Below are positions 54,723-56,854 of a stretch of 64,000 bases of DNA, one piece after another. Position numbers and translations under genes: made by a program. The stretch spans positions 2,256,835 to 2,320,834 of the forward strand of contig OY820579.1 of assembly GCA_963681965.1 (NCBI GenBank). The letters run 5' to 3'. The stretch comes from a bacterium. GTDB taxonomy: Bacteria > Electryoneota > JAOADG01. The notes under the pieces were generated by a model. It worked only from the letters and a program-made list of their open reading frames with translations. It made no database searches and had not been told where the DNA came from. The stretch's first letter is position 1, and each line of letters starts with the position of its first letter.

Positions 54723-54768
54723 TCGATATACTTGACTCGGTGTTAGTATTATTCTATATTTCGATATA
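54723..54768 (+). promoter_or_regulatory. Candidate arsR promoter with flanking tcgatata repeats (possible autoregulatory operator)
   Basis: ttgact, 17-bp spacer, tatatt ending ~8 bp before the arsR ATG (near-leaderless); tcgatata copies at ~54723 and ~54761. Confidence 0.35.
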
Positions 54769-55184
54769 TGTCGAACTATCGTAATCTTCCCGTCGAGCAG
54801 CTCGCTGCTCTCTTTAAAGCACTGTCCAATCCACAGCGACTCCAGATCTTCCTCAATGTCCTAGATTGCTTTGAGGAATGCGGTTGCTGCGAAACGACTG
54901 TCGATGAAACCCGCTGCTGTGTCGGCGATGTCGGAACTGGACTGGATCTCGCGGCATCCACCATCTCGCATCACATCAAGGAACTGCGTCAAGCCGGTCT
55001 GCTGAAACTGAAGCGGCGCGGTCAGCGCATCGAGTGCTGGATCGAACCGAATGCGACGCGCGAGATCGCACAATTTGTCGAATTGGTGCTCAGCAAATGC
55101 GTACGTCCGGAGCTGTGTTGCCCCGACGCAGCCGGCACAAGCTGTACACCTGCACAACCGCCTGAGGAGGGTACATCGAAATGA
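54768..55184 (+). CDS. ArsR/SmtB-family metalloregulatory repressor (Cys-rich)
   Basis: HTH region LFKALSNPQRLQIFL...LAASTISHHIKELRQAGLL; Cys clusters CFEECGCCE, RCCVGD and C-terminal LCCPDAAGTSC. Confidence 0.8.
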   Translation: MSNYRNLPVEQLAALFKALSNPQRLQIFLNVLDCFEECGCCETTVDETRCCVGDVGTGLDLAASTISHHIKELRQAGLLKLKRRGQRIECWIEPNATREIAQFVELVLSKCVRPELCCPDAAGTSCTPAQPPEEGTSK

Positions 55185-56563
55185 GTCCTGTGATCATTCG
55201 CAAAAAACAGAGTTGTTGCGGTGGTGCATCCACTCACCATCCGGAAAAGGGATCGTGTTGCAACAGCACCACTGCTCCCGAACAAAAAGAAGCAAGCTGC
55301 GATTGTGACAGCCAAACCGCGAAACCCGCGAAAGAACCGTGCTGCAGCGCTTCCGCAGAATCTGCTAATACCGCAGTCACATGTGGTTGCAGCAGCGAAG
55401 CTAAAAAAACTGCCCCAGAAACCTGCGCCAGCAAAGCGACCGCCAAAGAACCGGAGTATAGCTGTGGTTGCGGTAGTTCAAGTGCTGCCACCATCGACTA
55501 TGTTAGACCGAGCTTTCAGACCGGAACAATCTCGACGCCTGCCGGAGAAATTCCCCGGATTAGCACGGAACTCACTACCTGCGATCGGTACGGCACATTC
55601 AAGGCGCGATGGGATATCAACCGCATGGCGTATGCCGTGGCACCGGGATTGTACGGTATCGGCAATCCGACGCCGGAATCGCCGGTGTTGGTTACCGCGA
55701 ATTATAAATTGACGTTCGATCGTGTCCGCAAACAACTCGCGGGACGGAATTTGTGGCTGATGGTGCTCGATTCGAAAGGGATTAATGTCTGGTGTGCCGC
55801 AGGAAAAGGGACATTCGGGACGGCAGAATTGGTGAATCGGATTACTGTGACACGACTGTCTGAAATCGTCTCGCATCGCCGATTGATTTTGCCGCAACTG
55901 GGAGCGCCCGGTGTAAGCGGCTATCAGGTGTTCGAGCAGAGTGGTTTTCACGTCCAATTCGGTCCGGTACGATCGGAAGATCTTCCCACTTATTTGGATT
56001 CGAATTACAAAGTGACGCCGGAAATGCGCCGTGTACGGTTCGGATTGAAAGATCGGATTGTGCTCATCCCCGTCGAATTGGTAGGTGGATTCAATCAGGC
56101 ATCGCTGATTGCGATCGGTGCGATGCTGCTGGTTACTGTGTTGGCGGGATTCTTGACACCGGGAGGATTTACTCTGCCGCATTTACTGGCGACGGCGATT
56201 CCTGCGATTTGTATTGTCCTCGGCTCATTTGTCGGTGGTTCGGTGTTGGGTCCAATTCTGTTGCCGATTTTGCCCGGACGACGCTTCTCGATGAAAGGGG
56301 CTATCCTCGGAATGCTTATCGCGGCGGTGATCGGATTGGGTACTGGATGGATGCAAACACCGGGAGAGCATTGGGCGCAATTGGTTGCCGCCGGTTTGAT
56401 TAGTGCGGCGATCACGAGCTATACGGTGCTCAATTTCACCGGATCAAGTACCTTCACGTCGCTCTCCGGTGTCTTGAAGGAGACCCGACAAGCGCTACCA
56501 CTGCAGCTTGGGGCGAGTGTGACCGGTCTGGTGGTGTGGATTGTCGGAATGTGGATTGCATAA
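55181..56563 (+). CDS. hgcA: HgcA-like corrinoid protein (mercury methylation) with a ~100-aa Cys-rich N-terminal extension
   Basis: Cap-helix signature GINVWCAAGKG (nt ~55781-55810); C-terminal ~5-TM domain; start overlaps arsR stop (ATGA). Confidence 0.8.
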   Translation: MSPVIIRKKQSCCGGASTHHPEKGSCCNSTTAPEQKEASCDCDSQTAKPAKEPCCSASAESANTAVTCGCSSEAKKTAPETCASKATAKEPEYSCGCGSSSAATIDYVRPSFQTGTISTPAGEIPRISTELTTCDRYGTFKARWDINRMAYAVAPGLYGIGNPTPESPVLVTANYKLTFDRVRKQLAGRNLWLMVLDSKGINVWCAAGKGTFGTAELVNRITVTRLSEIVSHRRLILPQLGAPGVSGYQVFEQSGFHVQFGPVRSEDLPTYLDSNYKVTPEMRRVRFGLKDRIVLIPVELVGGFNQASLIAIGAMLLVTVLAGFLTPGGFTLPHLLATAIPAICIVLGSFVGGSVLGPILLPILPGRRFSMKGAILGMLIAAVIGLGTGWMQTPGEHWAQLVAAGLISAAITSYTVLNFTGSSTFTSLSGVLKETRQALPLQLGASVTGLVVWIVGMWIA

Positions 56564-56575
56564 TCGGAGGAAATC

Positions 56576-56854
56576 ATGCGCTATCTGGAAAATGAAGTCA
56601 CGTTGGAATTCAATCCCGACTTATGCAACGGTTGTGCACTCTGTGTCGCGGTATGTCCGCATGGTGTGTTTGCGATGCAGCAGAAACGGGCAGCGTTGGT
56701 CGATCGCGGTGCTTGCATGGAGTGCGGTGCCTGCGAAAAGAATTGCGAACGGCATGCAATCACGGTTCGTGCCGGTGTGGGTTGTGCTGCAGCCGTGATC
56801 AACGGGTGGTTGCGGAAATCCGAACCGACCTGCGATTGTGGTGGAGCATGCTGA
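56576..56854 (+). CDS. hgcB: HgcB-like 2[4Fe-4S] ferredoxin
   Basis: CNGCALCVAVCP and CMECGACEKNC motifs plus C-terminal Cys tail PTCDCGGAC; directly after hgcA. Confidence 0.75.
   Translation: MRYLENEVTLEFNPDLCNGCALCVAVCPHGVFAMQQKRAALVDRGACMECGACEKNCERHAITVRAGVGCAAAVINGWLRKSEPTCDCGGAC

Follow-up and report, generated by a model that had tools for sequence, protein, structure and literature searches.

A 64,000-nucleotide (nt) stretch of a bacterial genome (GTDB lineage Bacteria; Electryoneota; JAOADG01; assembly GCA_963681965.1, contig OY820579.1, positions 2,256,835 to 2,320,834 of the forward strand), referred to here as the window and numbered from its first letter, contains a cluster of arsR, hgcA, and hgcB genes. 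Judging from the sequence, this cluster is very probably a genuine three-gene operon for the mercury methylase pair, which converts inorganic mercury to the toxic methylmercury, headed by a metal-sensing repressor. All three genes are located on the plus strand: an arsR-like gene at 54768-55184 (138 residues, an ArsR/SmtB winged-helix metalloregulator), hgcA at 55181-56563 (460 residues, the corrinoid protein of the mercury methylase), and hgcB at 56576-56854 (92 residues, a 2x[4Fe-4S] ferredoxin). An earlier sequence-only reading had proposed this cluster of three open reading frames (ORFs) at 54768-56854, and its coordinates and strand were exact. Since ArsR-type genes 5' of hgcAB had been described before in other bacteria, the cluster is another example of a known arrangement. 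The unusual part here is the long Cys-studded tail of HgcA.

The identity of HgcA was confirmed by the curated profile NF040863 (HgcA_corrinoid), which scored 425 bits (cutoff 275) and aligned residues 124-458 with profile positions 1-324 of 325. HgcB passed NF040864 (HgcB_ferredoxin) with 117 bits at a cutoff of 99, residues 2-90 covering profile positions 1-90 of 93, and 4Fe-4S domains were assigned to it by Pfam. Judged by these scores, the family assignments of HgcA and HgcB are correct, and because the curated profiles were passed, a chance match is irrelevant to the gene identities. In a scan of genome contigs, no hgcA relative above 51% identity was found among the at least 80 hgcA loci listed.

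The cap-helix motif NVWCAAGK, which had been pointed out in the sequence-only reading, was found at residues 202-209 of HgcA (55784-55807, plus strand), inside INVWCAAGK. It matches the family motif N(V/I)WC(A/S)(A/G)GK, and Cys205, encoded by 55793-55795, is the predicted cobalt ligand. The segment GINVWCAAGKGTFGT was conserved whether 15 or 105 homologues were aligned. W204, C205, G208, and K209 were invariant in the 105-sequence alignment, and Cys205 was also retained in the alignment of 15. The C-terminal multi-transmembrane domain suggested earlier was likewise borne out. A hydropathy scan detected five hydrophobic segments in the C-terminal half of the protein, and an AlphaFold2 model built from 105 sequences (mean pLDDT 79, pTM 0.73) displayed five long helices in residues 296-459, namely 296-325, 332-360, 369-388, 394-417, and 428-459 (56066-56560, plus strand). 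The pLDDT values were 85-98 across nearly all of residues 110-460. The closest PDB fold for the model was ND132 HgcAB chain 9a0b_A (E = 2.6e-20), at 42% identity across 335 columns. The same combination of a corrinoid domain and a five-helix transmembrane domain is seen in this published model of ND132 HgcAB (PDB-IHM 9a0b; Cooper et al. 2020, PMC7305189). HgcA in the window has 460 residues compared to 329 in the modelled ND132 chain, and the surplus is the disordered 13-Cys tail.

A non-methylating paralogue, either of the fusion-type HgcAB-like form or a CFeSP-derived corrinoid protein, might merely resemble HgcA. In line with this, the only Pfam match to HgcA was the general CdhD family (PF03599, E = 2.5e-11), a sequence search of solved structures returned only CFeSP large subunits (including 2h9a and 4c1n), and the fused HgcAB-like model NF043039 also matched HgcA. 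However, the NF043039 score was 206 bits, under its cutoff of 285, whereas NF040863 was exceeded by 425 bits to 275. Furthermore, hgcB is a separate gene directly 3' of hgcA, unlike in the fused HgcAB-like form. The CFeSP large subunits (AcsC/CdhE; 2h9a, 2ycl, 4c1n, 4djd) share a homologous corrinoid-binding domain, but they have no transmembrane domain, carry their own N-terminal [4Fe-4S] domain, and belong to the Wood-Ljungdahl pathway. Their alignment with HgcA showed no Cys at the cap-helix position of Cys205. In the fold search, CFeSP chains ranked after 9a0b_A and covered the corrinoid domain only. With the cap-helix Cys, the complete transmembrane domain, and a true HgcB partner all present, the paralogue explanation is extremely improbable and already effectively refuted.

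HgcB had been described as a two-cluster ferredoxin with a Cys-rich tail, and each of these features was recovered. Its two CxxCxxCxxxC motifs, CNGCALCVAVCP and CMECGACEKNCE, comprise C17/20/23/27 and C47/50/53/57. The second motif is followed by E and not by the usual P, which is found in 66 of 77 HgcB sequences; the corresponding residues are CE here versus CP in ND132 HgcB. Cys70, within GVGC, follows the second motif at offset 13, a spacing seen in 77 of 77 HgcB sequences, and the C-terminal CDCGGAC provides Cys86/88/92, a pattern common to the hgcA loci L056 and L058. In the HgcB family, a strictly conserved Cys (Cys73 in ND132) lies about 12 residues past the second motif, and the roles of the conserved and C-tail Cys residues have been described (Cooper et al. 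2020, PMC7305189). The HgcB features found here agree with that family description, and ND132 HgcB has the same cluster motifs, conserved Cys, and flexible Cys-bearing C-tail.

The junctions between the genes were then read from the sequence. The arsR stop codon TGA (55182-55184) overlaps the hgcA start codon ATG (55181-55183) in an ATGA, as had been noted earlier for an ArsR gene directly 5' of hgcA, and 12 nt separate the hgcA stop from the hgcB start. A Shine-Dalgarno sequence, GAGGAGGG (55164-55171, plus strand), is located within the arsR 3' end, 10 nt 5' of the hgcA ATG, and a second one, GGAGG (56566-56570, plus strand), lies 5 nt 5' of the hgcB ATG. The first terminator-like plus-strand site past hgcB, at 56977-57006, is the hairpin AGGGGCGTATGCCATACGCCCTT with a T run, the hairpin itself being placed at 56977-56999; it is one copy of the repeat family D9. 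The proposed co-transcription is consistent with the ATGA overlap and 12-nt gap, the Shine-Dalgarno sites, a promoter before arsR, and this terminator after hgcB. Antisense ORFs within hgcA (e.g., 55478-56182) were taken as non-genes, as was a 154-residue ORF at 57267-57731 composed of repeats.

A sigma-70-like promoter is located at 54732-54760 on the plus strand, with TTGACT as the -35 box (54732-54737), a 17-nt spacer, and TATATT as the -10 box (54755-54760). With 10 of 12 matches, it was the top plus-strand site in 53600-57800. The arsR ATG is placed 7 nt past the -10 box and arsR has no Shine-Dalgarno sequence; a leaderless arsR mRNA is predicted. A candidate ArsR operator, the palindrome TTCGA-N6-TCGAA (TTCGATATATGTCGAA; 54760-54775, plus strand), extends across the predicted transcription start as well as the start codon of arsR. 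The same palindrome occupies the same position in five independent loci from different organisms, L075 (3030-3045), L083, L084, L085, and L086/L087 (3493-3508 in L083-L086), with just two other matches among the 90 loci scanned. The 66-nt start regions of five independent ArsR-subfamily loci aligned without gaps, and the invariant positions were TTGAC, TA...T within the -10 box, and TTCGA-N3-ATGTCGAA. Because this alignment is ungapped and the palindrome invariant, the start codon is covered by the palindrome at each of these loci. The conserved promoter and putative operator, consisting of TTGAC, 17 nt, TAnnnT, and the palindrome over the start codon, belong to the whole ArsR subfamily. The palindrome would serve as an operator overlapping the transcription start, at which ArsR presumably binds. 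The conserved ArsR N-terminus MS(N/K), with its invariant TCG serine codon, may partly reflect a constraint at the DNA level.

A 13-nt direct repeat at 54718 and 54756 was not counted as a separate site, being largely accounted for by the palindrome. The window contains four more TTCGA-N6-TCGAA copies (23030-23045, 23114-23129, 41317-41332, and 43192-43207), giving five observed compared to 0.23 expected by shuffling. Two of these four are intergenic and lie 5' of a 1065-residue immunoglobulin-like repeat protein. An ArsR regulon at the extra copies was considered and set aside, since none of the four adjoins a metal-related gene.

The ArsR protein passed the ArsR/SmtB metalloregulator model NF033788 with 58 bits (cutoff 55) and matched PF01022 (E = 1.7e-6); its PDB relatives are YgaV, ArsR, SmtB, and CzrA. 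The AlphaFold model displayed helices 1-5 and a beta wing. Helix 2 ended with Cys34, Cys38/40/41 fell in an inserted loop of lower confidence, helix 3 began with Cys50/51, and the second wing strand carried Cys90, while residues 112-138 formed a disordered tail with Cys117/118/126. The nearest homologues, at 45-60% identity, constitute one subfamily with the signature KALSNPxRL...SCC..(C)C......R.CVGDLG...AASTVSHHIKEL...IECW, in which Cys90 is invariant and Cys51 nearly invariant. Regarding the ELCVCDL-type As(III)-sensor motif of helix 3, no CVC was found in ArsR; Cys32 of R773 ArsR would presumably align with Cys51. Metal(loid)-responsive control, as suggested by the sequence-only reading, is a reasonable expectation for a regulator that passes the metalloregulator model and has a conserved Cys cluster, and there is a precedent in ND132.

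The genomic neighborhoods of the ArsR homologues were varied. The best homologue heads an arsR-DsbD_TM-hgcA-hgcB cluster, at least one further homologue sits 5' of a DsbD_TM gene, one is located between an Acr3-type permease and a methyltransferase, and another stands alone. The homologues P0123, P0134 (in L085), and P0168 (in L086) repeatedly adjoin DsbD_TM genes, which encode CcdA-like thiol-disulfide membrane proteins. One ArsR-homologue locus combines Acr3, an MtrA/FeS corrinoid-like protein, and a methyltransferase. The DsbD_TM and Acr3 neighborhoods hint that the ArsR subfamily has a broader regulon concerned with thiols and metalloids.

In ND132, an ArsR-like gene was shown experimentally to be co-transcribed with hgcAB and to regulate it (Goni-Urriza 2020; Gionfriddo 2022/2023), and a survey of 31 confirmed methylators found arsR at most three ORFs 5' of hgcA in 14 of them. 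The arsR2-hgcA-hgcB cluster of Pseudodesulfovibrio mercurii ND132 and related Desulfovibrionaceae likewise has an ArsR/SmtB-type gene directly 5' and in the same orientation. ND132 ArsR2 (DND132_1054), which has a four-Cys site of Cys47, 49, 86, and 88, resembles the ArsR found here in having Cys in the coil that follows helix 2 and in a beta strand. However, the Cys patterns differ, with C34, 38, 40, 41, 50, 51, and 90 plus the C-tail here versus the published positions Cys26, 47, 49, 86, and 88 in ND132. In addition, homologues of ArsR2 were reported only in hgc+ Desulfovibrionaceae, whereas the ArsR in the window belongs to a broad subfamily with multiple contexts.

The same ArsR subfamily is represented at the hgcA locus L075 (CALGBT010000789.1, a metagenome-assembled genome of an uncultured proteobacterium), with 107 bits against the subfamily hidden Markov model. 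L075 has the same TTGAC/-10/TTCGA-N6-TCGAA start region, an ATGA overlap of arsR and hgcA, and a Cys-bearing HgcA N-tail. Given the shared ArsR subfamily and ATGA junction, the regulator and hgcA seem to travel together. The two loci differ in that the L075 tail is about 40 residues long with 4 non-periodic Cys, the host belongs to another lineage, and the contig stops inside hgcA.

Residues 1-123 of HgcA are outside the NF040863 profile. Within this extension, residues 9-106 (55205-55498, plus strand) form a Cys-repeat tail of seven 14-residue units, in the order KQSCCGGASTHHPE, KGSCCNSTTAPEQK, EASCDCDSQTAKPA, KEPCCSASAESANT, AVTCGCSSEAKKTA, PETCASKATAKEPE, and YSCGCGSSSAATID. The Cys residues are at 12/13, 26/27, 40/42, 54/55, 68/70, 82, and 95/97, so that six units have a CC or CxC pair and one has a single Cys, 13 in total. 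The tail is hydrophilic and predicted to be disordered; it lacks secondary structure in the model, where its pLDDT stays under 50. No other tail among the roughly 200 homologues examined was as long or as rich in Cys. Among the 119 best HgcA homologues, the median tail has 48 residues and 2 Cys, and the maximum is the HgcA described here (123 residues, 13 Cys). At least two tail Cys were present in 94 of these 119 homologues, and tail Cys were found in 44 of 77 species-representative hgcA loci. The last unit, with C95-G-C97, aligns with a CGC motif common to many HgcA homologues. In the Desulfuromonadales HgcA of L056, the tail consists of five CCPP units and one degenerate CPP; on comparison of the sequences, this is an independent expansion unrelated to the tail here. 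HgcA N-terminal Cys tails were not found to be mentioned in the literature searched.

The nucleotide identity between tail units was 39% in register versus 26% out of register. Tandem Repeats Finder detected no 42-nt repeat in the tail; the periodicity is found at the protein level, together with this weak in-register nucleotide identity. Because of the in-register identity and the shared Cys phase, the units appear to be old duplications with retained Cys. Furthermore, the annotated long hgcA start is supported by the Shine-Dalgarno sequence GAGGAGGG 10 nt before the ATG.

Several flexible CC/CxC segments are known to relay Hg(II) or As(III), including the C-terminal Cys pair of MerA, NmerA, the HgcB C-tail, and ArsD; for the HgcB C-tail, the analogy to vicinal-Cys metal relays was drawn by Cooper et al. 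(2020, PMC7305189). The HgcA tail resembles these segments without sequence homology, and by this analogy it may be likened to a metal relay tail. We tentatively propose, as one possible reading, that the tail is a capture-and-relay arm for Hg(II) or soft metals, that Cys N-tails are an overlooked general substrate-acquisition module, and that the operon is a dedicated thiophilic-metal response unit. If true, the relay arm addresses the question of where HgcAB obtains Hg(II), and the operon would not be an accidental methylator, having a Cys-rich ArsR with an operator over a conserved leaderless start.

Several results weigh against reading the cluster as an ArsR-controlled mercury methylase operon with a relay tail. 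A single phase holding six Cys was matched by 430 of 20000 residue shuffles, which is of moderate significance only. A tail-only search of 1.84 billion representatives found no tail homologues; its sole match, a eukaryote-like low-complexity repeat protein, was judged spurious. A disordered tail without homologues could equally be a tolerated low-complexity expansion, and ND132 HgcA functions with essentially no comparable tail. On the side of the regulator, the ArsR subfamily is not hgc-specific, its homologues heading DsbD_TM, Acr3/methyltransferase, or orphan contexts, and an ArsR-like ORF is directly 5' in only about 10 of the 80 species-representative hgcA loci listed. Thus, the ArsR ligand is not readable from its context.

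It is also conceivable, although we regard it as doubtful, that the N-terminal extension is non-functional, either because translation starts downstream or because the tail is a neutral product of low-complexity slippage. The predicted disorder with pLDDT below 50, the lack of homologues beyond HgcA, the absence of the tail from the curated HgcA profile, and the lower GC content at third codon positions (GC3; 0.47 versus 0.59 in the core) would all fit such an origin, as would the missing Tandem Repeats Finder report at the 42-nt unit period. However, 123 open codons follow an ATG that is coupled to the arsR stop and has GAGGAGGG 10 nt 5', and the Cys hold their 14-residue register despite divergence elsewhere. 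The C95-G-C97 unit aligns with the CGC of many homologues, at least two tail Cys occur in the 94 of 119 homologues mentioned above, and an unrelated CCPP-repeat tail arose in the Desulfuromonadales HgcA of L056.

From the observed gene identities, motifs, and architecture, together with the published ND132 work, we infer how the operon is regulated, which ligand is sensed, what the enzymes do, and what part the tail plays, as follows; the published HgcAB cycle is the reading with the best support. Repressing its own operon, ArsR would sit as dimers on TTCGA-N6-TCGAA, which overlaps the -10 box as well as the transcription start and start codon, and would keep the leaderless arsR-hgcAB transcript low. 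As(III), Hg(II), or Cd(II), possibly also S-adenosylhomocysteine (SAH), would bind the ArsR Cys cluster and release the repressor; the sensing cluster would be formed by Cys where helix 2 ends, in the loop behind it, and where helix 3 begins, together with Cys90 of the wing. Translation of hgcA would be coupled to arsR via ATGA, with hgcB starting 12 nt later. HgcA would be anchored in the membrane by its five helices, its cytoplasmic corrinoid domain holding cobalamin with Cys205 as the axial ligand, and the two [4Fe-4S] clusters of HgcB would supply electrons to bring the cobalt to Co(I). S-adenosylmethionine (SAM), reported to be the methyl donor of HgcAB (PNAS 2024), would provide a methyl group that is loaded and then passed to Hg(II). 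In the published HgcAB model, flexible Cys residues present Hg(II) for methyl transfer (Cooper et al. 2020, PMC7305189). Hg(II) would be presented here by the C-terminal Cys of HgcB, and probably also by the Cys units of the HgcA tail.

A genuine HgcAB could still have another corrinoid reaction as its physiological role, such as halomethane dehalogenation or a step in the arsenic/thiol stress response, with Hg methylation as a side reaction and ArsR control serving that other role. We consider this unlikely. A 2026 preprint reported that CCl4 was dechlorinated by heterologous HgcAB and proposed halomethanes as the evolutionary substrate. The hgc-linked ArsR of ND132 responds to arsenic and SAH, hgcAB is frequently near ars genes, and ArsR homologues control Acr3/methyltransferase and DsbD_TM genes. 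However, such a role is compatible with methylation capacity, which the genotype has predicted in all tested hgcAB carriers. Furthermore, the vicinal-Cys tails of HgcB and HgcA suit a soft metal better than a halomethane, and no ars or dehalogenase genes lie beside the cluster in the window. For the mercury methylase operon, the capacity of the host to produce methylmercury is a prediction from its genotype.

The cluster had also been described as embedded between arrays of repetitive extragenic palindromic (REP) elements. Arrays do flank it, but the repeat families composing them recur in the majority of intergenic regions throughout the window. The upstream REP-like array (53644-54767), with short GC-rich hairpins and a G-rich motif, lies between a BNR/type IX secretion system (T9SS) gene and arsR, and the downstream array (56855-57760) includes two to three 121-nt tandem units at 57096-57337. 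At least seven GC-rich hairpin families, each with 7-22 copies, and the G-rich motif GATGGGTGATGGGGAATGGGTAGTAGGTGATGGG are distributed across the window. These form mosaic hairpin arrays in most intergenic regions (e.g., 44780-45850, 50440-51330, 59220-59790, and 57096-57337), and short imperfect palindromes in many intergenic regions qualify them as REP elements. Because the hairpin families recur across most intergenic regions, the arrays are a trait of the genome and not an operon function. Several window hairpins with T runs look as though terminators had been recruited as repeat modules. The 31 ORFs counted as genes leave about 30% of the window uncovered.

The flanking repeats were rejected as a mark of a mobile element, as the same repeats occur throughout the window. 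Recent horizontal transfer of the cluster had no compositional support, its GC and GC3 matching those of neighboring genes. The neighbors of the cluster are BNR/Ycf48-like proteins with T9SS sorting domains, and elsewhere in the window, Complex I subunits and other T9SS cargo were found. Exact copies of the cluster proteins were located on a 4.34-Mb contig (ENA ERZ21878129, contig_1), and the proteins were singletons in clustering at 90% identity. In a collection of 5.8 billion proteins, the trigger factor had one relative at 58% identity and no other listed above about 33%. With its trigger factor almost without relatives, the host seems to represent a deep, sparsely sampled lineage.

The trigger factor region is at 41938-43353, and the contigs of its relative (L088-L090) share with the window the order tig, a 416-residue ORF, LPG synthase, and a beta-eliminating lyase. 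A tRNA gene (43315-43396, minus strand) runs into the long tig ORF at its upstream end; therefore, the true tig start is downstream. A low-GC island at 33202-36130 (minus strand) follows the beta-eliminating lyase and contains four ORFs with a GC content of 0.29-0.36 versus about 0.51 in their neighbors. These encode a RelA/SpoT-like protein, an NTP_transf_2/Pol-beta nucleotidyltransferase with a weak PADLOC PDC-S09 match, and two proteins without a family. At that position, the sister-lineage contig has an unannotated 182-residue ORF and a Vut_1 gene. The island was probably acquired horizontally and is possibly a defence or toxin module. In a tandem array at 24746-25698, a 99-nt unit with two GC-rich hairpins is repeated 9.6 times at 95% identity, and an ORF at 25135-25722 matching Cas_CXXC_CXXC is probably a mere translation of this array. 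Four ORFs of 422, 343, 592, and 501 residues, located at 40264-41532, 43439-44470, and 47100-50383, had no Pfam family at E <= 1e-4.

To our knowledge, hgcAB is the sole known genetic marker of microbial methylmercury production. Since it is the only known marker, each new hgcAB lineage enlarges the set of organisms for mercury risk models. The hgcAB copy described here belongs to a deep lineage that is poorly sampled and has T9SS-type secreted proteins. Its Cys-repeat tail offers a handle on how Hg(II) reaches the enzyme, and the conserved leaderless promoter and palindrome provide a concrete DNA target for the signal that induces hgcAB.

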